The notes: generated by a model not told the origin, from the sequence alone. DNA of 64,000 bases from Phoronis australis (GCA_002633005.1 NMRA01000499.1:1-64000); one strand, 5' to 3'; shown: positions 837 to 30,649, numbered from the stretch's first letter. Numbers and translations: made by a program.

Positions 837-1026
837 GACAAAAGAGTTCAATGAATGCCCTGTCGAGTGTCAAAAGCAAATACTCACGTCACAGGCTTAC
901 GCCCTAATATACAAGAGAAGGGTGGTCGACCCGGATCTTTAACAGCGCATACCAGAATCGCTTCCCTACTTTTTACGTAGGATCGCCATTTTGGTTATTT
1001 ATCGCTAACGAGAACGCACAGCAAGA
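837..1026 (+). promoter_or_regulatory. Putative proximal promoter/5'UTR conserved between paralogs (copy B 34520-34724)
   Basis: Homology between the copies starts at TGACAAAAGAGTTCAA. Both share CACGTCA (CRE/ATF-like), an AT-rich ATATACAA/TTATACAA box and CGCCATTTT (YY1-type) about 40 nt before the ATG. Confidence 0.5.
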
Positions 1027-1083
1027 ATGGTGCTGCGCCTTCTTCTTTTAAGTTGGGTAGTGGTGTTAACTGTCGCAGTCTCG
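1027..1083 (+). other. Signal peptide coding region (copy A; copy B at 34725-34780)
   Basis: MVLRLLLLSWVVVLTVAVS / MVLRLLLLTWVVALSVADT: basic n-region, hydrophobic core, small residues, then an acidic mature N-terminus. Confidence 0.8.
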
Positions 1084-4000
1084 GATGAAAATCTGTACTT
1101 CAACCACGAAAATTCTGTGAAGCATGAGAAGAGCGGAGAAGAATTTTACATGAAGAAGTCCGGCAAAGTGGCCGGATTGATTGATCTTGACGACAGCGTT
1201 CAAAGACATGACATGATCACGGTAATGGCTGTTTTTTTGCTGTAAAATTTGGCGTTGAATCTTTTGATCAAATCAACAAAAATAAGTTGTAGAAGTGGCC
1301 ACTTAAGAGTGGAACAGGTAATTTACTTTGTTTTCTATCAATACCGTTAAAAGTGACATCTGCAATCATTCCTTCACTTAAGGTTATCTCCAACCTTATT
1401 TAGCGACCATCACTGTAAGACATTTATCACAACAACCAAGCTACGTCAACAAGTAAAAGTATAAATTTTCTGAAAGAAAGAAGAGATTATAAAAATATGT
1501 TTTATATCAATGTTTTTATTATTATTATTACGATACAGTTTTTTTAAAGAAAAAAATCCATTTTAAGAAAGCTACATCCATTGATTGCAAAATAACTTCT
1601 GGGAAGATTTTAATGAAACTCTTTTTAAACGAAAACTTCGAAAAAGTGTACCTCAAAAAACGCTGTTTGGAATTTTCGATTACTCATTTAGTTTTGTTTC
1701 TTTGCCAAATTCACTCGCAAAACGTAACGTATTTTTGCAAAAAAATAGCAGTCGCGTTCCTTTTTGTTACATTTGAGAACTTGTGTTCCTAAACTCCAAA
1801 TTAAACTTTCATGTTATAATGTCAGATCTGAAAATGAACTTGCTATATTTCCTTTTAACGCTTTCGGCCATGGCTTCAAATCTATGTGCTTCAAGACTAG
1901 CAAACTATGAAACAAAACGTCCTGAAACTAGCAGCTACAGACCTTGACACGTTTGTTCGGGGCATATCTGATGAATGAGTATAACTCTCATCTGAATGTG
2001 TAGATTCTACATGTGCTGCCTTAGCATTATATTAACCATAATTATGTCAACCATAATTATGTTCTGTTCCACTCAGATGCCTATTGCCAAAGAGGACAAA
2101 ATTTTAAGACACAAATTTTATATTCAAAAATATCTCTTGGGTCAAAAGCAACCCAAAACTAGAATTTATCAACAAAAAACAGGAAACCAGAATTTATCAC
2201 AACAGGTCCTATAATTTATCCCGTCAGGAGAAAAACTGAACACCTCTGGACCAAAAATTTATCACTCCAAGCTAGGAACCAATATTGCTGGTTCCTTGCA
2301 CAAGGACTGAAAATTTTAATCCCAGTGGCCGTTTGTATGAAATAGTCCCAAGTAGGGACTCATCTGAGGTCCCTAAGTCTTTTTGCGTATTTCTGTCTTT
2401 ATGGACTCACGGTTGTAATATTTTTTTATCATTTCATCTTTATTACGAGCTCTTCTTTGATTAGTGACATTTTCTACTATAACTAAACACTGGGCTCAGA
2501 GTTTATTGAAAATAAATAGAGACTCAGTCCTTAAATTGGGGGTGTTGCATGAAAATATCCCTAATTATTTTCGATAATATTGACAATTCAACGTAGAGTT
2601 CACTCTCGATTTGTATAAAAGTCAAAATTTGACTTAAAATGAAACTAAAACAATACAAGAAAAACAATCGATGTTTTCACAAGCCCAAAAATACACTCTA
2701 GACTTAGGGAACTTAGTTGAGTCCATATTTTTGGGACTGTTTCATGGAACCAGGCACAGGAGACCACGTATCCATGCAATATGGCGATCCGCTGTGTCTC
2801 TGCCATACTCAGTCGTATTCCGTGTTAACAGTCATTAACAACATTGTTCATCCAAAGACAGAAAATAAAACCAGCATAGTTAAAGCTTTATGTAGTTGTT
2901 TGGTCAGGGACCTAAGTCTCGTGCTCTCAATTCATAACTCATGAAAAAATAACTAGTATAGTATTTATTAGCTGATCACAAGTTCACAACCTAAAAATTT
3001 GCCACAAAATTATCTCAAAAACTGGAATTAATGTGTACATTCTCATAGACTTTGTATATTTGCCAAAATGAGATTAATTTTTTTTCACCAGTAGTTATGA
3101 GGAGCGCCAGTCGCTTTTGACGAAACACTAGATCCCTCAACACGAAAACAAAAATTTCAATGTCGGAAATAATATTTAAAAAGTTGCGTAGGCACGTGAT
3201 TTGTTAAAATGTAATCTGGGTAGAGTTTAATGACTCTAGGACCTTGGTACAAAAGCAATACATTGCGTGATTACCCGAGATATTGCCGTGTATTTAATAA
3301 TGACACGTGATTTTGGTTAGATTTTCTAGCCGCCAGATAGCTACTGAACTCTACCGTGGTCTATCGGATCTCATGACCCGTAACAATTGAATTCGTCTCG
3401 CAAGCTGTCATTTAATTTACAAATACGGTCTACTATTTCCAAATGGTCCACGCAAATGACGTCACCTATGCCGAAGTTAGTGGATAACACCTGTGTTTGT
3501 TACCAAAACAGGATGCAGTTAGAATAAAAATCCTTGAAGATTTGATAATCAAATTTGAATCTCCAACTATGAGTCGTCAATATAGTGGTTTCATTAAAAC
3601 TTTGTCATCATATAAATATAGGTGATTGGTGGGAGTTATTTCATCTTTATTATGGAACAAACGTCCTGAAACTATATATATTGATGTAGGTCCTAGGTGA
3701 TTGTTATTTTTATACAGTGGAGCCCTCTGTCGTTCTAACTCTGGCCTTTGATATTCCTGTTGTTCTCCTACCGTGTGTGCTTCATTTATTTCCATTGTTG
3801 AAATAAGGCGCGAATTTTACTCACACCTTAGATGAACCCAATGACCCAAGTACCGCGTTTTGTATTGTGTATTGTTTAATTCGTTGTAGTGATATTTTGG
3901 GTCAAATGCTATAAGATCTGATCCAGACGATAGAGGGAGAGGGCGATGAAAAACTGCCGATTAAACGGGAAAATCAGAGTCAAGTCGTGTGTTCAATGAG

Positions 4001-7000
4001 ATTGTCAGTACAAGTACTTTGAACAATTTAAACCGTTAGACATTTACACTATACAGTGTCGTTAAAACACCTGGTCCATACCCCGACCCGTTCAAGTCTC
4101 CTCGGAACAATCCCTTTTTCATCAACAATGCTCACTTAATAATGATCTTCAGGAAAAAGGATAACTATTTTTATTGTTAAAATACCCTCGAAAATAATAG
4201 TGGCCTATTTCAGTGGGGGTAAACGCTATCGGTTTTTCCCCATAATTTCAGGCGTTTCTTTGTTTGTGCTGCACAGCGATACTACTGTGCTTTGCAAGAA
4301 CATGGTCTGCGTTGTTTCGTCCAATTTTCAATCTTATCTACTTTCTCAGGTAAATAGTTGACAGAATCAAACGGGGTGTAAAGGGGAAATTGACCGAGCC
4401 TCTCGTCTAAGAGAGGACCACGTCTGAAAGGGGACTCCTTAACACGGACAGTTATATTGTAAAAATGAAAAGAGTAACAGTTAATTCTATCATCTTCCTT
4501 AACATAAACAATTGTACGATTGCACAGAAACAGAAAAATAGAGAAAACTGGTTTCATCATTGGGGGTCTTTGAGCTTAGAGTTCTTTCTATGCAGGTAAG
4601 TTTTTAGTGGAGAATGGTACGTATTAAGCTTGTGATAAAGTTGTGTACCATGACTGGCTGGTTCAAAATAAACTCACTCTTAACGTTTGTAAAACCAAGT
4701 CCTTGCTGTTGGTAATCCACCAGAAATCAACAGAAACTGTCCGTTTCTATCAAAGGTTCCCCTATCGAGAGCGTTGACCGTAAGTTTAAGTAGTTGGGCC
4801 TTATTTTAGATCCCAATTTTAAATTTAATATGCACATAAATCACATCACAAAGAAATTATCAAAGAAAATCGGTAAATTTCTTAATGTCAGCACTCTTAG
4901 TTTACCATTCAATTATGCAGCCTCATTTTGATTATTGTTTACCGGTTTGGGGACACACCAGCGACACACTTATTAATAAAGTCCAAGTAATCCAAAATAG
5001 AGCTGCCAGGGCTATCCTGGGTACTAGAATTAGGGACACCCGGGTCGACGACCTGTACTCCAAACTTGGAATCATGAAAGTAAAACAAAGAAATAAATAT
5101 CTCTCTGCCCGTTGTTTGTACGTGTACAGATGTATCAATGGCTTGGCTCAAGCATATCTCATCCCCAGTCAAGGTACATACTCTACACGTATTGTTTCCA
5201 GAGACCGGCAAGAAATCTTTTATCTATGCTGCTGCTGCAATATGGAACTCTCTTAGCCCTGGAATTAAGCGGTCCGATTCAATTAATACTTTCAAAATTA
5301 ATAATAAAAAGTGGCTGTAATTTACTTAACCATCCTTACCCCGTAGCTGTCTTAATTGTGTCATTTTCATTATTGTAAATATTCTCGCTATTTAGTATCA
5401 TCTCTTTATTTATTTCATCTCTCTTAATAAACTTTTCATCATCCTTCGTCATTTATTAATTATCTTAATTCTTAACTTTTTTAATTGTATCTTTGTTACA
5501 TTTATTTAATTATTGTTTCACTTTGTTATTGCATTATCCTCTGTTTTATATTTTGTTGTTGAGGGCCCTGTTGGAAAGCAGGGCTATCACTAAAGAGGCC
5601 ACCCTCGTTTTAAATTTTACAATAAATAAATAATTGGTAAGCGTATTTAAGGGTAGGATCAGCACCCTTTGTTGTAATGCGTTTTTTTGTACGCTTTAAG
5701 GATATAAAATGCGTACGCAACGGAATTCGAGTATACATAGACCCAAAAGACAACGCCGACCCTCATGCGGCGCTGGGAGGTCATTACGACATCACGCAGG
5801 TGTGGTTACCTGGAATGATCGTCCGCTCAAGGAAGACCTGGAACAATTGCAAATCCATGGTCGACGGCACTGAAATTGATGGAATTTACCAGAAAGTTAA
5901 GGAAGTCTTGTTCGGCATGAATAACCTATTTATATCTACCGTACCAGCAGGGTAAGTGGAAATCACTTTCTTGAAATTTGTTTGCAGATTGTGGAAAAAC
6001 TGACTAAAAAGGTGAAAACGCCAAGGAAGACAGTCGCATCGAGCAAAACCTTATTACAATATAGGGAAAAGCGCAGAAATCAATTCATACCTAGAACAAT
6101 AGACTGCTGTTTTATAGTTCTGATCAAAGCCAACGTCTGGAAGCCAATGCAATCCAAGATAACCCCAAAACGATTTTTTCGTCCGTAAAACCGTTTATAT
6201 CTCCTTAAATGCAGACTGAATGGACAGTATGTAATGTACTGCTAAAACGCACATGCGCAACCCAAACTCTGCCACTCAAAATAGAATTTGTTATTCGAGT
6301 TCCTCCATTTTTAGTTTCATTGAACTTCGTTGTGTATGTTGCAAGAAGCCATGTTGCGTTTCCCTCAGGAATTTTTAATCCACGGTATAGCATCAAGCAA
6401 GTCAAACATTTCATGCTAGAAATACGGTGGTAAACTTGGACACCATTGGTTTAATTTTGTCGTCGTCGTCGAGAACATTTCCAAAAACTACAGCACGCGG
6501 ATACTCAAGCGTTAAATACAAGTCACTGCTACCATACCTTCCTCTGCGTACACTATACCAGATGTAACAACTCTCTTCAGATTTGCTGACAACTTCGAGG
6601 AACTAGAATACACCGTCCACCACAAGAGAGGAGACTGGACGGGAGTCCCTGATGCGGAGAAGGAAGAGCACAGACACCGTGTCCGCCGATCAGTGATGAC
6701 CAACGACGACCTTATTCTGAGACTCACCCAAGGAACGCGAACCAAGTCAATCTTCGAGCCAGATCAACATCTTTCGCTGTCATCCAACTGGAATAGTAAC
6801 ACAAAAAAGTTTGACAAGAGTGCACGCATTGACTCATCTGAGAAGCAGGTTAAGTTCTACGACCAGTCGCAACAGTCTCAGTACTCTCCGAAGAACAGCA
6901 ACAACTGGTGGGACCTTTACTGCAAGGAATGCTACGCCACACTTGAGGGCGATACATCCGCGTGAGTATTCTTTATCAAATGCACCTGGTTTCGTCTCAT

Positions 7001-10000
7001 AATAGCTTGTCAATGATTTACATACATGCAAACTTATTACATAAAAATCCTACACGAGTGTCAAGTTTATGGCATGGGCAAAACCTCTTGGAAATTTTGT
7101 CAAAGTCCCGAGGCTTTTTAAAGGGGCGCCGGCCCTCTGAACATCTTTAGGGATATCGCGAACTTTGATCCTTCGGAAATTGTGTCCTAGCTTCCTTTGT
7201 AAATTCATGGATCAGGTCGTGCTATTCATATTTTGTTCTTAAAGGGAGACTCGTTAAATGAGGAAACTCCTGGTCGAAAAATAGATCTGACACTGTCTTT
7301 TCTCGTATCTTGCAGCAAACTGGTGATCAAAAAACGTGAAATCGTAGATTTCGAAGTGAAGGTAAGGGACACAGATGTATGACACATTTGAAACTGATAC
7401 TTTACAACATGGAATGAGTTAACTGAGTATTAGGCATAATTATAGTTTATTGCGCGTGACTTATTTCGAAAAGGGTGTGCCTGGAGTAAACGAACTTACG
7501 AAGCAATTTTATTAGGATTTCACTCCACTTGTAAAAATAACTGTGCAGGGCGTCTAGAAGTTCCTTCGAAAATGAGAAGACAACATTTAGGGGGATGAAC
7601 GGCTATTTGGATTGGTAGAAAGTAAATAACTCCACAGGTTTCTGCTTTTACTGAATTAAAATCTATAGTTTGTAGGCATTTATCTAAATACGCAAGCTTG
7701 TCAATATGGTCTTACATAATCTTAAGCATATTCAACATTACTATGAGCGTTGAAATATCAGATCATGTCATTTTAGATTAATGGCATCATCAAACTCAAG
7801 CGGAAGTTCAAAGTTCACACAAAGGGTGACAAGAGTGAGAAGGTTGAAGTTATGATCAGTAGCTCCAAAGGCAAAATCGACATACCAGTGATGATATTTG
7901 ATGACGTTCTTAAGAAAGACGTCATGATGCATCTGAACTATGACTTCGCTCAGTACATCAATGCGGACATAGATTTCGAAGCAGTTAAGTCCGAATTCGA
8001 ATTCGACATTTACGAAGAGGGAATTTTGAACATGAGTAAGTACAGTCGTTTTTAATTTGATGTTGAAATTTACCGATGCTATTGGTAATTAGGGTAGAGT
8101 CGGACGAGATGCCCAGTTTTACGGTCAAACACCCCNGCACCACATCGCCACGTGCTCTTGAAAGCGCCCGGTTCAATAGACACTTTGCTTGCTCAACAAC
8201 ATTTTGTAACCTCAAATTTGCGTCGATTACAATATGTCTAATAGCGTTAGTTGAACATTTGGATGTTCTCTCCTTGTTGATTTCCTAACTTCGAATCTCA
8301 TTGATGTAGTTGACATTAAGTCTTGATCTCGATGAGCAACTATCTTCCTCTTACTGAATATAAAGCCGAGATTTTGTGTGCCCTTCACATAAATTGATAT
8401 TACATTGTAGACAGTTAAAAAGTTTTTAGAACCTATATGCAGAGTGCACTGTGTTGACTGTGACAAGCAGGGTATATCTGCAAATAGTACGTCGTCATGT
8501 GGCAGAACCAGAGAAATTTCATAAAAAGATAAACTAGTAATTAAAACCATCAGATAATGGAAAGTGCGTTAACCTGAAGGCTTTTGCGTTTACAACACGT
8601 GGTACAGATGCTTTGCCAAAGCGGCTTACGACATGCCCGTAGTCTTGGGTCATCACTGTTAATTGAGATCCCCAAGACAATCGAAAGTTGAAGAATTGAA
8701 ATATGTTTTACAGGAATTATTTCACAGTTCATTACTAATAGCTTACCGTGTTATGTCATCATTGCTCTAAGATATATATGTCCCAGGCCTCATTGTTGCA
8801 GCCGTATTACTGCGTCTCCTCTGTCATCACTTCACTATAGTAATTAAAACTAGAATAAACCTAGTAATCATAATCTGGATAAATTTATTGTGAATTATTT
8901 ATATAATTTGATCAATATGAAACTTTCAGCCTTCACTCGTCAGTCCAACGGCAGCTTGATGATGGATCACCAATACACGCAAATCAACACAACAGCTGTG
9001 GACCCAATATACGACTTCTCGGCTGTTCTTTCGCGAGGCAAAGCCAATTTCAAGGCTAAGGTACGGAAAACTCAATAACTACAAGGAACTTGAATATATT
9101 CGTAATAGAGCTGTCATGTATAGACAAACCGCTAGAAGAGCGACTATATATTGAGGTGATGCAGGCTTTGCACGGTCTTAATTTCCAGTTATTTGGAAAT
9201 GGAGCAACTTGCAATGAGAAACGTTGGAGCCGAGCAGTTGAGAAGAATGACACTAAAGCGTATAAGGCGCTGTACATGACGTAACTTTTGCTAGAATCTT
9301 CGCCCTATATCCAAATTTTTTTCAACAGCTGGACCTTGACTTCACCATCAGTTGGGCCGATCAAAAACGTGAAATCGACGGAAAGAAGACTTTCTTGTTT
9401 CAGCTGGGAACCAACATGAAGTATAAAGTTGGGTAAGTGTCTTGCATAGTCGCAGGCGTTACATCACCTAGACACTTACGCGATGTTTTAGCTGGCAAAA
9501 CGTACTAGTTCAGCGGGTTCATGTTTGCTCGGTATTTGCGCACTTTTCATGTACGATTACGAAATGTGCTTGACAGAAATGGACTGCAATGGCACGTTGC
9601 TACTCGCAAAAGATTATGTATTGTTCACGCCACAATCTGAGAGCCCGGATGATGGCAAGCATTAGCCGCTGTCCTCTGGTATAATTTGATATGCTGGCTT
9701 TAGTTTGAAAGTAGTTCCCTGCTTGGATCAAAGGTCATCATTAGCTATGCATAGCAGGCCTCACTGGGTAATGCACCGTGAAGTTTCAATTAGATTGGTT
9801 CAGTTGATAAGGACTTAATGAACCCCTGAGAGACTTTTCAGACCAGGCCCGAAATGTCACATGTACGACTTATTAGAATGCAATAATATCATTCAAGCTG
9901 GGTTCTCACAAATCGTTGCATGATAACATTGATAACATTTCGAAAGTTCTCCCTATCGCAGGTTTCAGAACTCCATTCTCATTCCCGCGGTGTTTGATCA

Positions 10001-13000
10001 TTGCCACAATGATTTTTGTGTCAATGCGCGTCACCTTATAGTGCAAAAATCTATTTTTATGAAGTGATCTAATGACAATGTTTTACGTCGAAACAAATTT
10101 GAAACTTTTGTCGAAGACCGAATCCTTTTATAACATGTGATTAAAATGATTAAAAATTCGTCGACAGTAGTCGACAGTTCTTGAGATAAACTGTTCCACA
10201 AATTTCGGCCCTGAACGTATTAGTCTTTTTGGTGGCCTTGAGCAAAGACGAATCTGAGTCTACTTTATCTCTCTCATCAGCATAAGACACCGCTTCAGTG
10301 ATACGACGAATTCCTTTGATCTCTTACTCCGTCCTCAAAGATTTGAAGACTTCCTGTAAATGAGTTTCCAAATCTCTTCGAGTGAAAATGTTTTTCATAT
10401 AAATTGTTGGTAGCTTTGTCCTACGTACCTCCACAACAGTTTCCGACAGTCCTACAGTCGAAATGCAACATGACTGGTCTCGCTGGTTCCCTGCGTGCCG
10501 CTAGGTGGGGCTGGCTGGGCTAAGCACGCAGGGAACCAGCGAGCATGACTGGTGTGCATTCGAATATAGAAACAATTGGGTCGTGAAAATAACAACAAAA
10601 AGCGCACAGCACAGCCAGTGCTGACTGGATTTGGTTGAAATGGAAACAGTTATTCAGAGGCGGATCTACGGGGGGGGGTTCAGGGGGTTTAAACCCCCCC
10701 CTCGGGCCAGGACCCAAAAATTAAAAAAACAAAAAACAAAACAAAAACGTCTCCAGCAAAACAAAAACGCCGGCACCGCCAAGTAAACCAACCTGGAAAA
10801 AAATGAGGGGGGGGGGNNNNNNNNNNNNNNNNNNNNNNNNNNNNNNNNNNNNNNNNNNNNNNNNNNNNNNNNNNNNNNNNNNNNNNNNNNNNNNNNNNNN
10901 NNNNNNNNNNNNNNNNNNNNNNNNNNNNNNNNNNNNNNNNNNNNNNNNNNNNNNNNNNNNNNNNNNNNNNNNNNNNNNNNNNNNNNNNNNNNNNNNNNNN
11001 NNNNNNNNNNNNNNNNNNNNNNNNNNNNNNNNNNNNNNNNNNNNNNNNNNNNNNNNNNNNNNNNNNNNNNNNNNNNNNNNNNNNNNNNNNNNNNNNNNNN
11101 NNNNNNNNNNNNNNNNNNNNNNNNNNNNNNNNNNNNNNNNNNNNNNNNNNNNNNNNNNNNNNNNNNNNNNNNNNNNNNNNNNNNNNNNNNNNNNNNNNNN
11201 NNNNNNNNNNNNNNNNNNNNNNNNNNNNNNNNNNNNNNNNNNNNNNNNNNNNNNNNNNNNNNNNNNNNNNNNNNNNNNNNNNNNNNNNNNNNNNNNNNNN
11301 NNNNNNNNNNNNNNNNNNNNNNNNNNNNNNNNNNNNNNNNNNNNNNNNNNNNNNNNNNNNNNNNNNNNNNNNNNNNNNNNNNNNNNNNNNNNNNNNNNNN
11401 NNNNNNNNNNNNNNNNNNNNNNNNNNNNNNNNNNNNNNNNNNNNNNNNNNNCAGGTCTTCGTTCTTAAACAACTTGAGGCTGCTGTTACGCGATCATCTG
11501 ATATTCAATGTTTTACTCCCCGTCGGGTGCTCCTTATGCTCTTGAATATTTGGTAGTTGTCTAACCCCCCACACACACCACACTTTTTCATATACGACTT
11601 TTCGTATGCTAAAAAGGTGTGTATAAGCAGATGTTCCAACAAAAATTTTTGCTGGTGGCGTGATTCATACCCAGATGTGCACAAATATGATTTCACGAAA
11701 CTTGTGAGCCACGTTCATGCGACGAAATCGAGAAGGGTTTTAAATTATCTTAAGAAAAACTCAAGAGACATGTTATTAGTGCCAGAAACTTACCAGGATG
11801 CATGGAAATTTCACTATTTGGCTACAAAAACAAAAAAATGGTCTTACACGGAAGGGGGAAACCCCCCTCCCGACCTCCCCCCTCTCGGCGCCACGTGCCT
11901 CGGATTCGACCTTTGCGGGAATCCTAAACCCCCCCTTACTGAAAACGTAGATCCGCCCCTGTATTTGTTGCCTTTTGTGCTCTTACGTTAAAACGTGGAT
12001 TAACCATGACTCCAATTCAATTCAATTGAGAGGTAAAATGAAATGTACATGTATGTCTACATTTCAGATTGTCGCAGACAGTCGACTTTTCCACCTACAT
12101 CTACGGCTACGGAACAGTCTGCACGCGACCAACTCATGATTTATGGCTGTCCTCTGACGTTTCTCTGTCGACGTTAGAGTACAAAGTATTGGGCAAGATC
12201 TTCTGGTAAGATTTGACTATTAAATCTTTACTCAGATAGGAAAACCCGATCATCATTATGTGCTGCTGTAGTTTGAAAATGATGGTGATTGATGAAGTTG
12301 ATGTACAGATATTATTATATATGGTACAACTGACGAGGATTTTGGGACAAATGAGACTACTGCAGAGCCGCCTGGTGGCAATTTTTGAGTTTGCCTTGAT
12401 ATCCACCAAGTTTCATGATTTTGCAAATACGTCACTCTCACCTAGAAAACAGCACTGGCGCATCTTAGTGACCTGTGTTGCGCCAACTAGTGCACTTTCA
12501 ATTGCTTTTGTGTTCTTTATCGTCCGCCTCCCTATCCTCCAAGAAGCACCATTTCTGACTTACTTCGCTCACCCTAGTGACTAATACTAAGTTTACAGGC
12601 ATTGCACCGTTTTATGGGAATGTTTGTTGTATGTTTGCAAGCACACGGGGGGTGCATATAATCGCTTGCATTGCTGTTGCTGTGTTAATTTCAAATATCT
12701 TCAAGTAATGTTTATCGTAATCTATTTTGCTAGGGGTACGCTACGAGCTATGTTGCAGAGTAAAACAAGACGCTATTTTCATACCAGTGCGCCTAAATGT
12801 GGCGCTGCGTATAAATGAGAAATGATGCGCATATGCCTTTATGTGACAAATTTGAATTAAACTGAACGCATTTCATAGTCAGACAAACTTGACTTATCCG
12901 CCAAAAATGAAGCAACTAACGCGTGTTTCTTAATTATTCAATGGGAAGTATTCAATTAACAAAAAACACCAAAAACACTCAGCTTAGAGCATGCGCCTAT

Positions 13001-19000: not shown

Positions 19001-22000
19001 AGCCAACAAGCTGGTTGTTGAGTTTGCGTGGGATGAGCCAACGGAGACTGCTGGTTTCAAGTGGGGAACCTGGAAAAACGAAAATTCGCACCATCGTACG
19101 GCACAGTGAGTACACTTTGCAGACGTCTTGCGTGAGTTGCTTGCGAACTGTAAACCTATGAACATCATAATTGTACATGGCCATGGACTTACAAATGAAA
19201 CCAACTGTCCGTCTGTGAGTACAATTTATAGACGTCTTGTGTGAGTTGTTCGCGAACTGTTTGCTCAAACAACATTTGGTGTAGCTTTTTATTTATGCCC
19301 CAAAATTTTACACATTTTCACTACAGGTAGTCATGGTGTCACAAATATTACCAACAGTTTTTCTGAGCAGAATCGTAGTTTTCGCCATCCACCAGGCAAT
19401 TCTACTGGCTTGGGGTATGGGACAATGGTAGCCACAGCCCACAGAATCCCTTTATACACTCCGACGGTTAAGCAGCCTAAAGTGAATTCAAGTTGCGTCA
19501 AAGGCTGTCTAAATTTTATAAGTCATGAACAACTTCAAAGTACTCCCATGTAACCCTGAGAATCCACATGTACGCATCAATGTAGTATCAATTTTCATAA
19601 TCGCTGTCATGCATTCGGGTCAGTGACAAGTACTGCATCTAAACATTTCCAAGCCTTCATGAACAAAAGTATTCTAATAGCTCTGACCTTTAGATTGACG
19701 TGCAGTTCTTCAGATGACCCAGTGAATTATTAGGGGTGTTGAGATTAATCGCGATACTATCGAATCGCAACACTGGGTCGTTACGTATTTCGACACACTT
19801 ATAATGTTGACAACAATTAAACAGTCACTTGAGAACAAACATCAAACAAGCAAATGCCGCTTCAAAGAAGCGCAGCAGATCACCGTTTGTTTTTTGTGTG
19901 CACTTTCATTCCTAACAAATTTAATAACTGACAAATCTGGCTATACCTATATGGTCCTGTTGTCACGCATCCCGGCTGTTGTATCTCCTAAACCCCTTGC
20001 AGGACGTTCATGAATTTTTATACATGTAGATGTGCACTATGAAGAAAATATATTATACTTACACCAAAGGAACTATGGCATCTTTGTATGAAGCTAACAA
20101 GGGACTACGGCAACTTTTGGCGAATTCTATTACCGTTGTTCCCCCTGGTGGCAATATTTCATTTTTTTACGCTTGCCTCTTTACAAAACTCTTTGACGGA
20201 TTTTTTATGAAATCTGGCATTTGGTTTTTTATTAAGATAACGCATTTTGGGTTACAAAATCGGCTCTAGTTATGAAAATTTGCTCAGACTCGGTTTCTGA
20301 TTATTTCTTATCAAAGTTTAATTGAAGAGAAATTGATCAATACTGGTGGACTTTCTACCCATCAATGTGCGTTTCAAAACCAATTTTTCACAAAAAACGC
20401 ATAGTCACGTGACAACGAGGATGGCACACTGTTGTGAATGACGTGAATGGCTTTGCTTCGATTCCTAGGTTAAAACACGTGTGTTTTATCACTTGGAAGT
20501 TGCTGTTGTTTCGCCATTGTAGGGTGAATCATGCTTGAAGTAGGGGTACACGTAACCTTTAATAACTTGTTTATTACTACCCCATACTTTGACTGGTTTA
20601 CTATTACGAAGCCTCCTCGCTTGACTAGAACCCTGCCATAACGACTTTGTGGAACTTATCCATTCTTTGTCTTTCTTCTTCACTTTGCCAGATGATGTTA
20701 CATGGATAAGAACGCACACACAAAAAGTACCGAGAGTGGCGTGAATGAAATAATGTCCCACGAGACATTATTACGCGTATCGACCGAGACCCAGGGTCGC
20801 GGTCGATACGCGAAAGAAACAGTTTTAAATGTAACGATTTATTACTTGAAAGGAGAGAACAAAGATGAAAACAACGGTAACTGTGCATTGAACTTGTAAC
20901 AGCTATTGAAAATAGTTAGATAACAACAATATTTGATAGTGTAGAATAGATACCGAGGAATCGGCGCCTGAGTTGCAGACGATATAATATTTAGCAACTA
21001 AAAACTGAGACTGAACTGTCATATAATTAACAATACTGTTCCAGATGCTACGATTGGGACCTGGCCAGGCCAGGCGTAATGGGCATGTGCAAACCATTTC
21101 TTCGACAAAAACTGATTATGCTCATCGGCTGTTTTTACCAAACGCTAAGTTGAAACTCTGTAACTACGCGTTTCTGATTACAGGGCACTATGGCTCAAGT
21201 TAACAGGGAATGATGGCGTAGGTAAACTCGTTCAGTTGGGCCAGCTTGCACAATGTGCTGGCTTTGACTTCGTCGAGTACCCTCCTCCTCCTAAACCTCA
21301 GGTCATTTGGGTGTGCGTCAAGAGAGAAAACAAACCTCGTTCGTTTGTTGTGCCATTCCCAACTGCGCAATTACAAGCGTCAAGACCGGGCTTTTTCGCC
21401 GTCAACGGCAAGTACGCCTATCCAGGCAGATGCGATGAGAACATTCCATGGTGTGGAAAAATTGATCCTAAAAAGGAACCATACCTTAGCCAGTTTTTTG
21501 ACTCGTCAATCTATGAAAAAACCAAACTTGTCGGCAATTTAACACTAAAGAATTTCACCGAGGAGCGGTTTGCTAGGATCGACCAGTACCTCGTTGAATG
21601 CGTCGGCAATCTCATAGCGAAAGGCGGCCTCAACATCCGGGTGACAGCTGGATTTAGAAATCAGCTGGACAACGAGAAGAATCGAGAAACAAAGCATGAT
21701 GAAGAGAAGATACGTCACCAGTCTGGCCACGCTGTAATTGTTGAAATGGCTAAGGGAACGACAGGTGAAACTGAACTCATAACAATTGGAAAGGTTAGTT
21801 TATTTGATACCTGGAATATTATGTATGACTTTTCGATTCCAATAATTTTTCGTTCTAAATTGTACTTCCTACATAGTCCATCTCGTTGTCACGATTTCAA
21901 TGAAGTGCGTTTTACATTCTCAAAACCAATCCGCAAAATCAAGCCTTGTCATTCACATTATTTGGAGCTGGGACTGCCGAAAGAAAGCACGGGCGGAAAA

Positions 22001-25000
22001 TGAGAAGGACTAAGAGAAATGGGCAGGAGTAATCCTGATACGCCGACAGAATCGATTAACAAATAGGAAGAACGGGTGAGAAAAATAATGGGTTTGTGAT
22101 GGAAAGGACCGGTGGCCATTTCGCCGTTTTGCAATCCGAGTCGCTGTACCCGAAGTCGCTGTCATGTTGCGTGTCAATCGTTTTAACGATGCAGTTTTAA
22201 AAATCCGTATTCACTTAGCCGACATATGGCTAAAGATGTATATCACATGAAAAAATAGAAAGCTAACTTTTCTTGTAAAAGTTCAATCCAACTCCCGAAA
22301 ATATATGGTTCGACCTTCATTTTACACTGTTGTTGAAGTATCCATCGATAACGGTGGTCACGTCAAAATCTGATAACCACAGCAGATTTTAATGGCGTAC
22401 TAATAAATCAAGCAATGGCACTACTTTCACAACCCCCTCTTTTTCATTGCATACCCCTCCTTCCTGTTTGTGAGTCCGTCTTTCTTATCGCAAGGTCCGC
22501 CATTTCCACCGGCAGTCCAAACTTCACTTTGGACGGTAAAAACTGAAAACCTGTCGGGTCAAATTACCCTAGATTTCACCTAATGGACATCGCTCTTCAA
22601 GTTGAAGAGATCGGGGTTCTGATATTGCAATCGCTGTTGAGTGACTAACGTGTCTGACAATTAGATAATTGTCAAGGTAACGGCGTTCAGTCAAACATCA
22701 AACATTTACATCCAGACGTTATTGGACATCTTGATCACGTTGTCTGTGAATGCCGATCCAAATAGTCACAGCCGTGCCGTGACCATTTGAGCAGCGAATG
22801 CCGGTCCACTGGACACAGTGGGATGTTGTGGTCATTTGGGCGTATCTATAGAGGCAACATTTAGAACACGTACAGAATGACAGACGCTGCAAATTTTGCT
22901 AATCAAAGTGAATGAAAATAATTTGTTTATTTTCAGGCTGTCATTAAAATCTGTGGCAACCAAATTAATCCTCAACAGCGTATGTTGGGAATTGGTGTCC
23001 ATAAGAACGAATTATATTTCGACTTCCGCCCTAAGCCATGGACAGATCCGCCGTCGGTGCAGGCCAAAATGTGGACTCACGATGGCGGCAGCGCGAAAGT
23101 CGTCACTGAACTAGAAAAATGGCTAAAGGTTGTTCAAGGTAAAGTGTCAAAATGGAAGGAAATTGTACTTTCTCAAGAGCTTTATTAATACAATAATGTA
23201 CCCACATAATAAATATGTGGGCATATAACAAAAGAGAATCCAAAAATACACGGGGCCCTTTTCATAAAACTGATTTGAGGCTACGTTAAGATGGGAAAAG
23301 TTTCATGAACCAGGCTCATGGAATGTGATCAAGGATATTTTCGGGACAAGTGGTAAGTTTTCTAAATTACCACAAACGTGCCAAGTGTTGAAAATTATTT
23401 TTTGCAAACTTTATTCTGCTTCCTAGCAGTCAGCATCAATGTTGAGCTCGTAGCGTAGCCGACCTGAGCATGGTAAACATATCCCATTCGTACTTAACTG
23501 TTTTCGTGGACAGCATCTTCAACAGGCAGCAGTCAAATTTTGCATTCGGTGTCAGTGTGTGCATTGGATTTCTAAGCGATCGTGGTACAGAGAGTGATCA
23601 CGAGACCTCGCGTGAGTTCGCAAAAAGCTGTTCAACAAGCGAGTGTACGCCTTCCCTATTGAACAATCTTTTGATGCTAGATCCGACTGCATCCAATTGA
23701 CTGTTCAGGGCAAATGAGATGTCGTGCTTAGCAACATTTGTTACCTAAATACTGTATAATCAAACTGATTAGAAAAGGCAAATCCATGATTGTTATAGGA
23801 AACTTGCTTACCATGCCTCACTTTGATTCCTTTTGGAAAAAGTTCCGTCAAAAAGGCGCAGTAAATTTTTCGGCTTTTGTATGAACACTTGTCTCATCGC
23901 GTGCTTTGTTTACCAAGGTAGACCAAAAACTAAATGAAATTGCCATGTACGTTCGCGTTTTAGGTGGTCCGGCTATCTCTGCTCTTGATGTCGATACAGC
24001 GTGTACCTTCAAGCTAGGGGAAGAGAACTACTATTTCAACTTTAAGACAGATGCTGGATTGTAAGTACGGGGTCTCCGCGTCCAAAGTGTCAAAATATGC
24101 AATCTAAAATCGAAATGACCAGTTGTTCAGTAACTCGGTGAAATGAAAATTCTCCAAGCATGGTGCGCACATCAAAATTTTGCTTCCCACAAGTATTTCT
24201 TTTTTTGTGCCGACTGCCTCTCGATCTTTCGGCTAGAATCGTTATGAAATGTGGCAGATGGCTTCCAGCAAGTCCGACTACAACAGAGACGTTTTTCCCT
24301 CTGCCTCTATCTACTAAGTTACTTGATGGAAGAGATTTGATTTACATGTTCTTGTTGAGAACACGATGACGATTCAGCCGCTCGCACACACAGCTGTTTG
24401 CTTTGGGCGACCTGCTCACAGCGCCAAACTTCGGGTTTGAAGAATTGTTAATTTTGTTTTATAAAACCGACTAAAAGGTCTAAATACCGTTCAGAGTAGT
24501 CTCCTAAATCAAATGTATCAAATTGATGAAAAGCGCTTTCAATGTAATAAACAGAACTGCTTTCACGTTGCAGTTCAGCAGTGTCGAAGCGTCAGTGCAA
24601 TCGTTGCAGAGATCTAAAAAAGAATAGTCCCTTATTGTGTTAACTGGTTACTGTTTAGGCACACAATTTACTCAGCTTGTGTACAATGTATGTATTTCTA
24701 GTTTGAACTAGATTAACCCTGGGTATTAGGACTTTAGGCTCATGCCCGTGTCAGAGTAACATTAAGTGGCTTTTCAAGCTTCGAAGCCAACTGTGATGAG
24801 TTTTAAACATTAAATTGACTTGTTTCGATGCAAACTCGATTTTGTACTCCTCTAACTTCCAGTTTTGCCGACCTCGATTGCACCAAAAAGAAGTACTCCC
24901 CCGAATTTTGCAAGAAGACGCAATCTTACAGAAAGCAACAGATGAAGAGGGTGGAAGACATGTTAAAAAAGAAAGCTCAGCTCACTACCAGCCATCGAGA

Positions 25001-28000
25001 CTACGCAAAAGTGAAAAAGGCACTAATGGGATGTCTCGTTGACGATTGCAATGAATGCAACGAAGGTTAGATGCTGAAGTATACTTTACAAAACGCGTGT
25101 AGGCCTAAGACTAAAAGCTTCGCTTGCATTTGTGATTGATAAATTTAGCATCAAGTGACCTTGACTATGGAATTCCAAGCCTGTCAGTAGATAACGCGTG
25201 CGGGTTTTACACATTTACGCATAAATGCCTGCTGGTTTTACACGTTTATGCGTAAGCACGCATAGATTTTACTCGTTTACGCGTTAGGCGAACTTTTATA
25301 TTAACACGGCTTCCGATTTCAGAGCCCGATGAATGGAGCCAGTACATGACACAAGATTACGTCAACGATGGTGTAAAGTGATTGGTTAGTTAGTCGTCCA
25401 CATATCCGTAATTAATACGCCCACTTGACCCCTCCACTAACGCATAAAATTCAGACTTGTACTATCGAATGGCTGACAAGCACTATCATTAGGAAGGCAA
25501 AAGGGCTTTTGAATTGGAAGTCGAACACCACGGGGAACGGATGTCTCATAAGGGCGTCTAAGTTTTAAGTTTTAGCAATAAGCTATCCTTGTACTGGAAT
25601 ACTCTTATAGTTATATTTAACATTCCAGGGCCAGTTTGGACGAGGAAAGTAGAGAACTGTATGACCCTCTTGAACTTTTACAAGAACAACTCTGGCAATC
25701 CATTCGGGAATCTAGACAAGTTAAGCATTTACAACATGAATACTGAATCAGCGATCGACAGTGTCAGTTCGTTTGCCTGTGACGACAGAAAATACGTGTG
25801 TGTGGAAAAAACGGAACTGTTTGGCATTTTCGGTAAGTTTATGTTCTTTTAAGCTCATTAGCATTTGTAACGTAAATTCGCGACAAAGCGATTAGGGCGA
25901 AGTATCATTAGACATCCTGTTTTTTCTTGCATTGTCATCGCTCGTATTGCATGTTCAACAAATTGTATTCTAATTTTGCTGATAAATTTTAGGAACTCCT
26001 GGGCTGGGTTGCATAAACCTTCAAAATTATCCGCTGGATAACTTTGATTGTTGCATGACGTCAGGTGCAATTTTCAACAATAACAAGATGACACGTGTTT
26101 AGCGTATACATTACTATGCAACTTTTCCCGGGACGTTATTGGCCGTATTCAAGATTGGAATCCATCTCTGATTAGAGGCTTTGTAACCAGGGCTCTTGAC
26201 TAGGTGATCGAAATGTGGGCGTGACTTTAACAGCCGTGTCCTCTGTAATGCATTTTCTCTAGAAAAGTGGTGACATGGTTTATTTATGGGAACGAGAGTG
26301 CAACCGCCGGAGGCGTTGCGACTCTGTTGCACCAAATATCCCAACGATTAGGCGAAATTCGTCCACAAACTCCCTAGGCAATTCTACGGAGCCTGTTTCA
26401 ATACACGCATGTAGGCCACGCGTGGCACGTGTGCAATGGCGTGGGTGATAGCATTTAACCCCCTTCGCAGAAAGTGTGTGGCCAGATGTCCACCATAAAT
26501 ATCAGTGCCATGAAACGGGCGTTCAGTAAAAACTCGCAAAAACGCAAGGTCACGCAAATTTTGGCAGAGATATTTTCAAGCATTCAAGCAAAGCCTGAGA
26601 TCACACCAATGACACCTTTGGCTCAACCAAGGTATTTTGAATAAGACAGGCAGAGTTCCATGTCGATGAAAGTAGAAAAAAACTTGTTAGTTTCCATGCG
26701 CCCACCCAGCCTTCAATATGGGGGGGCTCGAATTTCTGACGATGTGGACCTTTTACTAACAAAAAAGCGGGAGGACTAAAAAACGGGGTACCACGTTCTG
26801 CTAATTTTGCGTTTGCGCCTTTTTAGTGTTTTTTGTCTCGTTTTCTCGGACTTTTTGTTTCTCTGAGGTGGAACTTTTTGCCCACTTCGCCAAAAGGGGG
26901 CTCGCCCGAGCCCTTCCCCCCTGGGTGCGCGCATGGTTCCTACAATGCTCTCTTTGAACATGCAGGTTACTCTTTAAATAGCGAGTAGAGAACGAAAACT
27001 CCGCCTGATAACAAATTTACGCCATTGGTGAATGTTGGTTGCTAGTTTGAATAGGGAAGTTTTCAGGTAGTGCATTAAGTTAACTTATATGCTACTAATC
27101 TTGACTTCTCTGTTCTTATCCCGGCGATAGTGATAATTTGCGATTCTCGTGAACCATATGAAGCGCTAATTAGGTCAAGTCGAAATCGCAAACTTCAAAC
27201 TTCAAAATAATCAAACCAACGGTGGAGAATCTTCCCGTCGTCCATTACAGCCCGTTTTAAACTCCATCTTCATTTCAGATGTTACTCGTGCACAATGAGC
27301 TGTATTCAACTGAGTTTTTTTACCACATTTCAGCTCCAAGTATCCGTGCGCGGTACAAGCCGAATAGGGATAGGAGTATTGAAGTTGAACTGTATGGTGA
27401 GAAAAACCCTTCCCCGCTTCTGGAAATGATACATCAGATGTTAGCTATGAATGCTAAAGGAAACGTGACTTTGTTTATTGACAAGTACGGAGACCTCGGA
27501 ATCATGAAGAAGCTGATGAAGGTAAGTTGAGGCTGGAAGCCGTTACATTTGGTGAGTTTATGACCAACTCTTACCGCATTAGAGTTGTTGTTTGTTTCGT
27601 TATGCGAAACACAGGGCACATAAAAGTCATCAGCACAATAGCGGTGAAACCATAACGACGTGTGAGACAAGATGAAAGGAGAAATACAAAAAAAACGGCT
27701 ATGTCGGCGATATTTATTAAAATGTCTGTACGCTCCAACCCCTCTTCGTCAGTACCATAGTAAAATTCGGCATTACTGGGGCATACCACACGAACATTCA
27801 AAACAATCAATAGAGTGCTCTTGCAATTCCTTATTGCTAGTCTTAGATAAATCGATTTTACTAGAATTGTCACCCTGGACTGCTGACTCAAAATAGCCTT
27901 GTCACGTTTCTGGTGTGATTGAACAACATATTTCCAATGCAGGATTTAACATTTTTTGAAAAATCCTTTGGATCATGTGCACTGGCAGTGCTGTTTCTTT

Positions 28001-29484
28001 GAGTCCTTGATTTTCTACTAAACGTGTTTTTAAAATCAGAACGACATCGGAACCTGACATCGTTTTTGAGTATTCAAGTTTTCTTGTATGAGGCAATGAC
28101 AGTCAACAGTGAACCAGCTATGGGGTGGGATGACCTTCCCCCCTGGGTGGCACCCATGGGCGGCTGGGGAAAATTTGATCCGCCTGTATAACAAATGCTT
28201 GATTGACATAACGTCCCTTGTTTTAAAACTTTGCCCTGTACTGCATAGGTGACTAAAAGCAGAAGAATCACCTGTGGTCCCATAATTGAGACGACGGCCG
28301 TGACACATATGTATCTAAAAGGACTGTTTTGTTTCACCGAATAAATTGTCCGAACACTGAACGTCCTTACCTTGCACTCAATAAACTTCATGTGATTTGA
28401 GTAATGTAAAGTTATCTTTTGGAGTCATGGATTTCATTAAAGCCACTAGCTTTCGATCTAATCTCGAGACCTTTGTCGGATGGAATGGCGAGTAAGCCGG
28501 ACACGCTCCATCCCTTAATAGACACTCGAGCTACGGTCTTCCCACCACCTAGCAGAACTTATTCCTGACCAACCGACAGAGGTCACGTCGCATTACGCAC
28601 GACTGATGACGTAACAGACACAGGCGGGGCCTCAGTTGCTCGCCATTCCACCCGACGAAGGTCTCGAGACGACACCGAAACTTGTGGTTTCTGTAAAGTT
28701 CATGATTCCTAAATCTGACTTTAAATCATTCATATTCTAACGGAGTCATGAACATTTATTGTTCTAGTTCATGTGTCTTGTTTTTTGTACGGAGTTCTGT
28801 TTTTGGCAAAGGTTCCTTCTGTCGGCCAAAACATCGGCGTCAAACTGAAGTCCGCGACCTGCGGACGCAACGTCGCTAAATGAGAAACCTTTATTCCAGC
28901 ATTTGATTTATTTCTTTCATAATATCGACGCTATTACATGGGCCGCTTCCAACTTGAGTGAGCTCATTTTCACAGTCCAGTTCAGAATTTCTTGGGAAGG
29001 AAATCGTGCAATATTTTTATTTCAAACCAAAATGGCGATTTAACCAATATCTACATCAGTTCCTTACTAGTTACGTGAATGAATGCTGAAATCGGTACTT
29101 TGTCAGAAATAAAACACCAACAGCACAAAAATATGAAAATTTCCGTTTCAGATTATGATGACTTACAACACAAAGGTCGACCTGATCAAGGTCTACTTCT
29201 CTCCTTCGCTGTCTAAGATGAAGTCGGTAAACAAAAAAGCATACGAGATCAAAGAAAACATGATTATGAGCTCCATTGTCAACTCTGCTGACATCTGGGC
29301 TGGTACTGTTTGTCCCAAAAAGGCCCGACCCGCTCTCACGCCGTACGCTGTCGGAGATCCGAAAGACCTAGAGGAGAAGAAATCCAAAACGGTTCTCGCG
29401 CAAGAGGCGAAGGATGTGGCGCAACGAAAAGCTATTCTGAATTGGGAACTGGAATGGGTTGATAAGAGAATGAACCCATCTTAA
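1027..29484 (+). CDS. Copy A: 21-exon gene for a 1532-aa secreted protein (signal peptide - furin-site pro-region - beta-rich region - Hedge-like x2 - peptidase M15A-like - Cys-containing C-terminus)
   Basis: Exons: 1027-1221, 5701-5951, 6581-6961, 7316-7361, 7777-8035, 8930-9060, 9329-9432, 12068-12205, 13244-13450, 14561-14781, 14966-15313, 15974-16133, 18538-18711, 18959-19105, 21184-21793, 22937-23138, 23964-24060, 24863-25065, 25629-25832, 27334-27521, 29152-29484. Acceptors are pyrimidine-rich and end in AG; donors are GT except one GC. Phases match at every junction, the total is 4599 nt ending in TAA, and exons 1-20 are far better conserved in copy B than the introns. Confidence 0.9.
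4651..5633 (+). mobile_element. 5'-truncated L2/CR1-clade (Crack-like) LINE 3' end, copy A-specific, frameshifted
   Basis: Translates to DWLVQNKLTLNVCKTKSLL, YHSIMQPHFDYCLPVWG, VQVIQNRAARAILG and KSFIYAAAAIWNSL..IKRSDSINTFK, followed by an AT-rich 3'UTR and an (AATA)n tail. Copy B has the empty site (..TTGTGTACCA|GGGTAG.. at 38160). Confidence 0.88.
10655..11961. mobile_element. Non-autonomous TIR DNA transposon, copy A-specific, containing the assembly gap 10817-11451
   Basis: TIRs CAGAGGCGGATCTACG / CGTAGATCCGCCCCTG are flanked by duplicated TATT; copy B has a single TATT at ~42878. Confidence 0.85.
13388..15247 (+). other. Hedge (Hedgehog N-terminal signalling / Hh-DD-peptidase fold)-like domain 1, exons 9-11
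   Basis: PEQACGKIIRQV..EFFSKMIQLKSNKILFKNEE..[Cys insert]..ADRHMS..IKSLAELVM..KLMVINAFDE..SIHQEGRAAQI..LMRKLGQMAVMAEFDYVKIYADYVHVGVK is colinear with Shh-N GRYEGKITR..FKEL..DIIFKDEENTGADRLMT..LNALAISVM..KLRVTEGWDE..SLHYEGRAVDI..YGMLARLAVEAGFDWVYYE..HIHCSVK. Confidence 0.88.
16072..21322 (+). other. Hedge-like domain 2, exons 12-15
   Basis: DSACGKIGIPVTRYHKRQFKGLYYYPYNDVVFTN..[Cys insert]..RDRVMTHRLAFRLRRLAKLVEEKWSGANKLVVEFAWDE..NSHHRTAQALWL..KLVQLGQLAQCAGFDFVEY..VIWVCVK: same Hh landmarks (DIIF, DRLMT, LA..V..QW.G.KL.V, WDE, S.H, LA..AGFD.V.Y, VK). Confidence 0.85.
16936..17090. mobile_element. MITE (AGGTGGATCCAGG...CCTGGATCCGCCCCT) shared by both paralogs (copy B ~48832-48961)
   Basis: Terminal inverted repeats at the orthologous intron-12 position in both copies, so the insertion predates the duplication. 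Confidence 0.8.
21510..23035 (+). other. Peptidase M15A / YcbK-like (LAS, D-Ala-D-Ala peptidase fold) domain, degenerate, exons 15-16
   Basis: RIDQYLVECVGNL..NIRVTAGFRNQLDNEK..RHQSGHAVIV..LGIGVHKNELYFDFRP resembles the bacterial M15A pattern ID..L...L..L....I.I.SGYR....N.....H..G.A.D....GIG.Y...F.H.D.R. Confidence 0.7.
28396..28733. repeat. Imperfect ~95-bp inverted repeat pair around a ~145-bp spacer (MITE or Penelope-like inverted pLTR relic)
   Basis: GGAGTCATG..TTTCGAT..TCTCGAGACCTTTGTCGGATGGAATGGCGAG pairs with CTCGCCATTCCACCCGACGAAGGTCTCGAGAC..CCGAAAC..CATGATTCC. Confidence 0.7.
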
Positions 29485-30649
29485 TCTCCATTTCTCTCGT
29501 ATTAACGCACTCACTTTGAACTTTTATTTTGATATCAACGAAAATCACGTTTTAACTTTCTCAAGTTTTTACTAACACAGGCTTTTACTAAAAGAAAATG
29601 AATCATTCCTGAAACTCTCAGCTATTATTACTGTATGGGCCAATATGACACAATTGATTTTGTACGAGTGTTTTTGAAGTAGGTCTATCTACAATGCGCT
29701 TACCTACTAAATATTCTTGCACTCTTTAAAGTAGACGGTTAGTCCCGGCCTTTAAATGAAAGCCCATGTAGACATGCACTGAGGTGGTCAGGCCTGCAAC
29801 CATCTAAGGAAATGGGGATGCAATATATTTGATTAATAGACCTTTTGCTTGCTCTTCGGCAGCCTCACCCGATCAGCAGTTTTCTCTAGTCGTAGTCGGT
29901 CATTTTGTCCTACATCGCCTACTCTATTCTCTTACTCCACGTTTTTCTCCTTGTACACTCTTGTCGTTAAGATGCAGACTCTGTTAAACCAGTTAGAAAC
30001 AAATTGATATGACTTACACGACAATATATGTCGATTGGAAAATCTCAAATACCGGTGAATGTTGGGATTTCATCCTTTGGATATCCCCCTGGCTGCAGGC
30101 ATGACGTTTTTGGAATACTTGCAAAATATTTTTTTTGTATAATCTAGGCCGCACAGCGCTAACTACTGCAAAAGTTCTCCAGTTTGGGACAGTGAAAATT
30201 AGTTATTTTGGTCAAGACAAGAGCTTATACTAAAATTTAGAAATACGCAATATTGGTCATCCTCTAAATTCAAGAATCATAAGAAAAGCGTATTTTGCAG
30301 TAGCATCTATTTTCGACGATTTAATCTTAGACTTTGTGGATACAAAAAACAATTTCCAATATTTGAGAAATTTGATGAATGCCAACATTACCCATAATCC
30401 CAATATTCAGAATAAAGAAAATTCAATACTGGCTTGAATTTCAATGTCCCAAATGTTAAAGACTGTCTCACACTCGGGAATTTTACCAAGTTAAGTTAAA
30501 CCTGGAATGTTTAAACTGGAATAAGTTAGCGGCAGTGATGCTTCCCGTAAAACATGTTCGTGCACGCATTTCAAACAATAAATAATAAAATGATACATAG
30601 CTACACCATTTTATTTGTAATCTTTTGTGTAAACTAAAGCAAATGGTGG

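Follow-up and report, generated by a model that had tools for sequence, protein, structure and literature searches.

Background

In animals, the Hedge domain has been described in Hedgehog (Hedge plus Hint) and in Hedgling (Hedge plus VWA, cadherins, and a transmembrane (TM) segment) (PMC2362128, PMC9695228), and Hedgehog-like cores that are non-catalytic, termed Hedglets, have been reported from lophotrochozoans including molluscs, from amphioxus, and from echinoderms, with a distribution called enigmatic (Jaegers and Roelink 2021, PMC8052667). The LAS enzymes carry the motif H-x6-D plus H-x-H with a catalytic Glu, and those of the M15 family act on peptidoglycan (PMC6027127); an animal protein that carries an M15-type domain has precedent in rusticalin (PMC6339383). 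ARC domains occur both in CD38/CD157 and in polymorphic proteins of bacteria (PMC3482391, PMC3417536, PMC9503650, PMC6368836), active ones carry two Glu and two Trp (PMC12605009), and ARC enzymes act in animal antibacterial responses (PMC9503650). Here, we describe a plus-strand gene at 1027..29484 of a 64,000-nucleotide stretch of the Phoronis australis genome (GCA_002633005.1 NMRA01000499.1:1-64000, the whole of which is called the window), whose product combines two Hedge-like domains, a likely degenerate M15/LAS-type domain, and a predicted CD38-type fold in one chain, and which we tentatively read as a secreted, non-catalytic binding scaffold.

Compared with Hedgehog, the protein has the Hedge fold (as modelled on a homolog), the arm at its N-terminus, and some of the Ca site, whereas it differs in carrying two internal Hedge copies, in lacking an N-terminal Cys, GCF, or Hint, and in the loss of the zinc triad and catalytic Glu. 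It resembles Hedgling, as described in PMC2362128, in being a large extracellular protein with a Hint-less Hedge domain and an incomplete peptidase motif, but it has no cadherin, EGF, Ig, or TM segment, joins tandem Hedge to LAS-type and CD38-like domains, and belongs to a family in which VWA occurs in one of 30 members. With the published Hedglets it shares a Hedgehog-like core without catalytic residues in molluscs and, by eye, a Cys ahead of the AD-R motif, an insert after the WDE motif, and a Cys in the last helix. The Hedglet alignment covers cores of ~105 residues at residues ~270-420, and the oyster core in it is not closely similar to our oyster homolog; on this comparison of core sequences by eye, Hedglets may be a sister family of the present proteins. 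As in rusticalin, a bacterial or phage-type M15 domain would stand in an animal protein, with L-Ala-D-Glu peptidases as the best rows, but here the zinc ligands are lost, the match is weak, and the partner domains are others. A search of the open-access literature found neither this architecture nor a fusion of Hedge with CD38 described; subscription papers and supplements may hold one. An earlier note on this DNA, made from the sequence alone, had proposed an architecture distinct from both Hedgehog and Hedgling that joins Hedgehog-type and bacterial-type folds; the distinction is borne out by the tandem Hedge domains and the lack of Hint and TM, and the folds are probably joined in one chain, but the CD38-like C-terminal domain had been overlooked.

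Gene model and expression

Four public runs (X1-X4) were mapped on 600-15400 and 11500-31400 for splice junctions; run X1 consists of contigs, and its status as RNA is a guess. Exons joined by the RNA junctions give a 4,599-nt open reading frame encoding 1,532 amino acids (aa) plus a stop, the product length that the earlier note had given.

1027..29484, plus strand: 21-exon coding gene
1027-1221, 5701-5951, 6581-6961, 7316-7361, 7777-8035, 8930-9060, 9329-9432, plus strand: exons 1-7 (RNA junctions, open frame)
12068-12205, 13244-13450, 14561-14781, 14966-15313, 15974-16133, 18538-18711, 18959-19105, plus strand: exons 8-14 (RNA junctions, open frame)
21184-21793, 22937-23138, 23964-24060, 24863-25065, 25629-25832, 27334-27521, 29152-29484, plus strand: exons 15-21 (RNA junctions, open frame)
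29485..30600, plus strand: unspliced 3' untranslated region with AATAAA near 30580 (X1 contig 29150-30552, read depth, sequence)

All 20 introns have RNA junctions, 19 of them in raw stranded reads of at least one of runs X2-X4, and the sole support for the exon 9-10 junction is one X1 contig. The exons belong to one gene, with exons 11-21 covered by one contig and the 5' half joined junction by junction, without a single molecule across the whole transcript. The intron at 16133/18538 is of the GC-AG type, as is its counterpart at 48039/50282 in a second copy described below. The stop codon lies within exon 21 and the transcript runs on unspliced to about 30550-30600; a downstream Hint or TM exon, which would have contradicted the earlier note, was not seen along this 3' end. 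The gene is thus real and expressed, and the surrounding DNA is eukaryotic and intron-rich. Intron 7 holds a 635-base N gap at 10818-11452, followed by a repeat at 11450-11960 with high read depth on both strands; since the RNA splices exon 7 straight to exon 8, no exon is hidden in the gap.

A mollusc-wide family

Exon 15, compared exhaustively by phmmer with 1.84 billion representatives, returned 13 matches, 10 of them in the family, two of which are full-length mollusc proteins; the bacterial YG-repeat proteins P0002, P0011, and P0013, matched over ~40 residues, were dropped as chance. Searching with one full-length mollusc homolog gave 23 proteins of 901-1,752 aa, and every named one (19/19) is an uncharacterised gastropod or bivalve protein. 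We aligned 25 co-linear homologs, with which the window protein is itself co-linear (29% over 1,020 aa to P0005; residues 6-1529 to P0042). By these matches, the protein belongs to a mollusc-wide conserved family already in databases and is not an orphan, as the earlier note had allowed for, and Hedglets had been named before. Between homologs, identity per domain is only 35-45%, paralog sets occur in Haliotis and Saccostrea, and the window protein sits on a long branch outside the homologs in a quick IQ-TREE tree. When longer proteins were sought by word matches to exon 15, none emerged from 984 candidates, a profile search aimed at amphioxus and echinoderm members returned only six proteins, the named ones molluscan, and bacterial or phage relatives were absent from the metagenome contigs searched with homolog P0044, with phage tblastn giving chance rows only. 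Among the homologs P0046, P0047, P0048, and P0050, a VWA domain is present in one Tegillarca member, and a long insertion follows the second Hedge domain in three from Saccostrea; these may be real variants or gene-model errors.

Three LAS-type domains without a zinc center

The core of the protein is laid out as follows.

13371..15258, plus strand: Hedge-like domain 1, aa ~545-742, with a Cys-rich insert (profile matches; homolog model against Shh-N)
16051..21331, plus strand: Hedge-like domain 2, aa ~787-970 (hhalign against domain 1; second HH_signal stretch in homologs)
21479..23119, plus strand: likely degenerate M15/LAS-type domain, aa ~1020-1185, zinc triad not conserved (weak structure and profile matches)

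Two Hedge-like repeats had been claimed for this protein, and profile comparison agrees: hhalign aligns Hedge-1 with Hedge-2 at a probability of 99.9 (E 3.7e-36), and two matches to Shh-N come from the family profile (E 7e-19). An AlphaFold model of homolog P0044, spanning window residues ~531-1527, was obtained with a predicted local distance difference test score (pLDDT) of 85.8 and a predicted template modelling score of 0.70, and its first domain superposes on Shh-N with Z 20.8 and a root-mean-square deviation (rmsd) of 2.2 over 145 aligned residues. The HH_signal match that the earlier note had called for was found in 26 of 30 aligned members, with a second HH_signal stretch present in homologs, but the exon 11 reading frame alone reaches HH_signal at E 0.0011, short of the Pfam cut-off, and single exons gave only non-significant Dhh rows against PDB sequences. 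A Pfam scan of the same 30 members contained no Hint family. In Hedge-1, most of the Ca-site acids are retained in the window protein (E586, E587, D618, D654) and are conserved in 19-23 of 25 homologs, with the Cys-rich insert located in the Ca loop; the Ca site of Hedge-2 is mostly lost across the family.

The zinc ligands have fared differently from the Ca-site acids of Hedge-1, as the LAS zinc motif is broken in all three LAS-type domains of the window protein and the 25 homologs. The zinc site reads His/Gln/His in Hedge-1 (H676/Q683/H735), where the catalytic Glu is absent, His/Trp/Trp in Hedge-2 (H917/W924/W963), and H1099/I1106/Y1151 in the third domain. Across the 25 homologs, the Asp column is never Asp, and the last His is kept in four for Hedge-1 and in none for Hedge-2 or the third domain. 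Judged from these alignments, Hedge-1 and Hedge-2 are tandem, internal Hedge-like domains that have lost their zinc ligands.

The third domain is likely a degenerate M15/LAS fold. Its sole structural rows are phage L-Ala-D-Glu peptidases (VIA Z 5.8 and 5.7), found with the domain as part of a longer model. The phrog_894 endolysin profile matches 7 of 19 proteins (best E 2.3e-4), the window exon itself not among them, Pfam Peptidase_M15_3 matches one of 30 members (E 0.052), and an Atlas lead for the domain scores 0.88. A third Hedge copy was considered and rejected, at an hhalign probability of 0.4-2.2%. The earlier assignment to an M15A, D-Ala-D-Ala-like domain stands as far as a third, weakly supported LAS-type domain is concerned, while D-Ala-D-Ala is too specific given the phage L-Ala-D-Glu rows and the lost zinc ligands.

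The likeness of Hedge-1 to Shh-N raises the question of whether the protein is a soluble modulator of the Hedgehog pathway, acting as a decoy or co-receptor bridge with Hedge-1 binding Cdon/Boc/Ihog, Hhip, or Patched. CDO and BOC contact the Ca-site region of Hedgehog, and the close superposition of the homolog model and the retention of most Ca-site acids would suit such a role. We nevertheless regard it as unlikely, as the protein has no N-terminal Cys, no Hint, and no zinc center, the last being the means by which Hhip binds Shh (PMC8052667), and as it places a Cys-rich insert in the Ca loop at ~30% identity to Hedgehog. Modulation of the pathway would also leave the CD38-like and beta domains unexplained, along with the paralog expansion and the fast evolution. 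Hedgehog itself evolves slowly, the annelid Hedge being 72-82% similar to that of mouse (PMC9695228); fast divergence and the tandem paralogs in Haliotis and Saccostrea fit an immune role better than that of a Hedgehog modulator or morphogen.

A C-terminal CD38-like domain

24879..29415, plus strand: predicted CD38/ADP-ribosyl-cyclase-fold domain, aa ~1230-1510 (homolog model against CD38)

The C-terminal ~260-280 residues of the P0044 model match human CD38 in Foldseek at E 2.4e-5 with a probability of 1.00, and VIA aligns 198 of 229 residues with Z 12.0 and an rmsd of 4.0, covering the whole ectodomain. When 48,161 chains were searched independently of Foldseek, porcine CD38 (Z 11.3), Aplysia ADP-ribosyl cyclase (11.2), and CD157 (10.7) took ranks 4-6, and TIR and similar Rossmann-like rows scored Z of about 6. 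The structural identity to CD38 is only 11-13%. The family profile finds no CD38 sequence in the PDB at E<=10, the domain has no Pfam or NCBIfam match, with no ARC-family match in 30 members, and the ESM Atlas gave no usable match (its own model having a pLDDT of 0.48), so the link to CD38 is drawn from one AlphaFold model and two structure aligners. On this basis, the C-terminal domain is predicted to adopt the CD38/ADP-ribosyl-cyclase fold. No other domain of the family is as well conserved: its median identity is 45% between homologs and 32% from the window protein to homologs.

Pocket residues were mapped in bovine CD38 numbering from published spacings (PMC3329556) and predicted secondary structure. 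The signature Glu is retained in all 25 homologs and as E1351 in the window protein (25805-25807), preceded by a hydrophobic residue, with the other TLEDTL positions differing. The columns of His126 and Glu138 hold an invariant His and Glu, 12 residues apart, in homologs, and S1338 and E1351 in the window protein. By this indirect mapping, the Trp118 column is F/Y (window Y1326), the Trp181 column is mostly L/I (L1389), and the catalytic Glu218 column is L/I (M1421, beside the conserved Lys K1422 at 27516-27521), so that of the four ARC catalytic residues, only the signature Glu appears to be retained. The mapping suggests a pseudo-enzyme in Phoronis australis and possibly a shifted catalytic acid in molluscs. 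Relative to CD38, CD157, Aplysia cyclase, and bacterial Tox-ARC, the domain shares the whole ectodomain fold (Z 10.7-12.0), the signature Glu, a Cys-rich helical subdomain, and, in homologs only, the upstream His; unlike them, it lies inside a multidomain protein of 1,400-1,530 aa, has an apparently degenerate TLEDTL, and has apparently replaced the catalytic Glu and both Trp.

These residues bear on whether the domain is an active ecto-enzyme that hydrolyzes or cyclizes nicotinamide adenine dinucleotide (NAD), its catalytic carboxylate at a neighboring position, with the Hedge and M15-like domains targeting bacteria or cells while NAD is consumed or cyclic ADP-ribose (cADPR) or NAADP (nicotinic acid adenine dinucleotide phosphate) is made. 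The conservation of this domain above all others, the His and Glu spaced as in bovine CD38, and a Glu in the Ser185 column of 21 of 25 homologs are consistent with activity, Ser185 of bovine CD38 lying 3.7-3.8 A from the catalytic carboxylate (PMC3329556), as is the use of C-terminal ARC domains as effectors in bacterial polymorphic proteins (PMC12605009). However, other residues stand in place of both pocket Trp, the substitute column is His in the window protein, where Ser also takes the place of the invariant His, and neither the Pfam scan nor the low structural identity to CD38 favors an enzyme, which leaves activity an improbable reading. We hold as equally doubtful an extension of it, namely an undescribed family of animal effectors with the layout of bacterial polymorphic proteins, in which a convertase-released pro-domain and a beta domain without a matching fold would precede three dead peptidoglycan-peptidase folds, two of them of the Hedgehog type, for the recognition of bacteria, along with a NAD enzyme of the CD38 type whose catalytic Glu has moved.

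N-terminal domains and processing sites

1027..1083, plus strand: predicted signal peptide, aa 1-~19, without a Cys after it (hydropathy)
1084..6689, plus strand: small beta domain, likely a pro-domain, aa ~20-170, followed by a furin-type R-x-[KR]-R at aa 182-185, 6678-6689 (homolog model, site conservation)
6897..12200, plus strand: long-stranded all-beta domain, aa ~255-500 (model of homolog P0035)

The secretion features proposed in the earlier note hold up. The N-terminus is hydrophobic, with a best 10-residue hydropathy of 2.99, the first Cys from residue 20 on is C69, a GCF motif is absent from the window protein and 25 homologs, and hydropathy gives no TM segment, the top 19-residue value past residue 40 being 1.05. 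A furin-type site follows the first domain in all 20 homologs having that domain and is R182-R185 in the window protein, which points to convertase cleavage at aa 182-185 and to the small beta domain as a likely pro-domain. A second furin-type site lies just ahead of the last ~30 residues in 20 of 24 homologs. In the last ~25 residues (29416-29481) lies a conserved amphipathic helix that shows the pattern W-E-x-x-W, directly preceded by the furin site in most homologs, where a cut would free the helix as a peptide.

Residues 21-480 of homolog P0035 (460 residues) were modelled as the small beta domain plus the long-stranded beta domain with a pLDDT of 80.6. This model had no Foldseek match at E<=0.001, and its best VIA Z among 48,161 chains was 6.5, with no clear solved-fold match. 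The beta domain of the window protein is only ~12% identical to those of homologs. Likeness to perforin, MAC, or aerolysin appeared in weak Foldseek rows (probability <=0.10) and was not taken as evidence, and a possible likeness to fungal DUF7029/DUF7223 proteins was without Pfam support.

A long-stranded beta domain, catalytic sites that all appear degenerate, and conserved convertase sites at both ends that resemble polymerization control could also describe a structural or adhesive extracellular protein of mucus, cuticle, shell, or egg coat, in which enzyme-like folds serve as Ca2+-dependent building blocks and the beta domain polymerizes. Read depth in the three raw-read runs is modest, however, the CD38-like pocket residues are highly conserved, and no repeats or biased composition were seen, and we consider this the least probable of the readings.

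Second gene copy and flanking sequence

34725..61814, plus strand: second copy of the gene, exons 1-20 in the window and exon 21 outside (exon/intron identity)

The second copy is ~90-99% identical to the first in exons and ~75-88% in introns, with splice sites intact where mapped and no stops in 1,204 codons. It is either a tandem paralog or an uncollapsed haplotype. The synonymous divergence (dS) between the copies is 0.155, and the ratio of nonsynonymous to synonymous divergence (dN/dS) is 0.13. RNA variants matched the second copy at 16 of 30 mappable positions, and the reads may stem from alleles or from the two copies. In this copy, a single N at 39558 stands between the end of exon 3 and exon 4, a probable assembly gap. 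In intron 1 of the first copy, a degenerate frame at 4840-5300 resembles the end of a non-LTR retrotransposon protein, with no Pfam match. Tandem repeats of ~45-bp units lie 3' of the gene (30638-30980, 31423-31524), and similar shorter units occur at 1-80.

Proposed function

With the gene model, its expression, the order of domains in the sequence, the conservation of the family, and the missing zinc ligands as direct observations, we propose that the protein is a non-catalytic, furin-processed, secreted binding scaffold for host-microbe recognition, its CD38-like tail likely binding rather than cleaving NAD-type nucleotides. We put this forward as the leading reading, at somewhat less than even confidence. 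After secretion, a convertase would remove the N-terminal ~185 residues. The three LAS folds, on this reading inactive descendants of peptidoglycan peptidases, would hold bacterial wall peptides or glycans in retained clefts, with Ca2+ tuning the binding of Hedge-1. The long beta domain would anchor or oligomerize the protein on mucus, matrix, or membranes, and the CD38-like pocket would hold NAD or ADP-ribose-type molecules or dock partners, coupling recognition to a downstream response.

Several results weigh against this scaffold. The folds were predicted on homologs P0044 and P0035 while the window protein sits on its long branch, the M15 assignment is weakly supported (Z under 6), and the C-terminal furin site is missing from the window protein. 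The CD38 residues were placed by spacing and secondary structure rather than by residue-level superposition, and the Ser185 column, next to the catalytic position, is His1393 in the window protein and Glu in most homologs, given which the mollusc proteins may have enzymatic activity. Purifying selection, as seen between the copies, is compatible with any function.

The results give a full, expressed, and conserved architecture for Hedge-core proteins of the Hedglet kind, which were previously enigmatic, and indicate that fusion of a Hedge domain with a CD38-type fold is possible, a predicted combination to which sequence libraries are blind (0/30 in Pfam). Were the family to consist of effectors of the bacterial polymorphic kind, the Hedgehog-N fold would be tied to innate immunity and to NAD/cADPR signaling in one chain. 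The family thereby raises the questions of whether the Hedge fold may have retained, in animals and outside development, a part in binding bacterial walls and whether ARC folds may persist as pseudo-enzymes or with a shifted active site.

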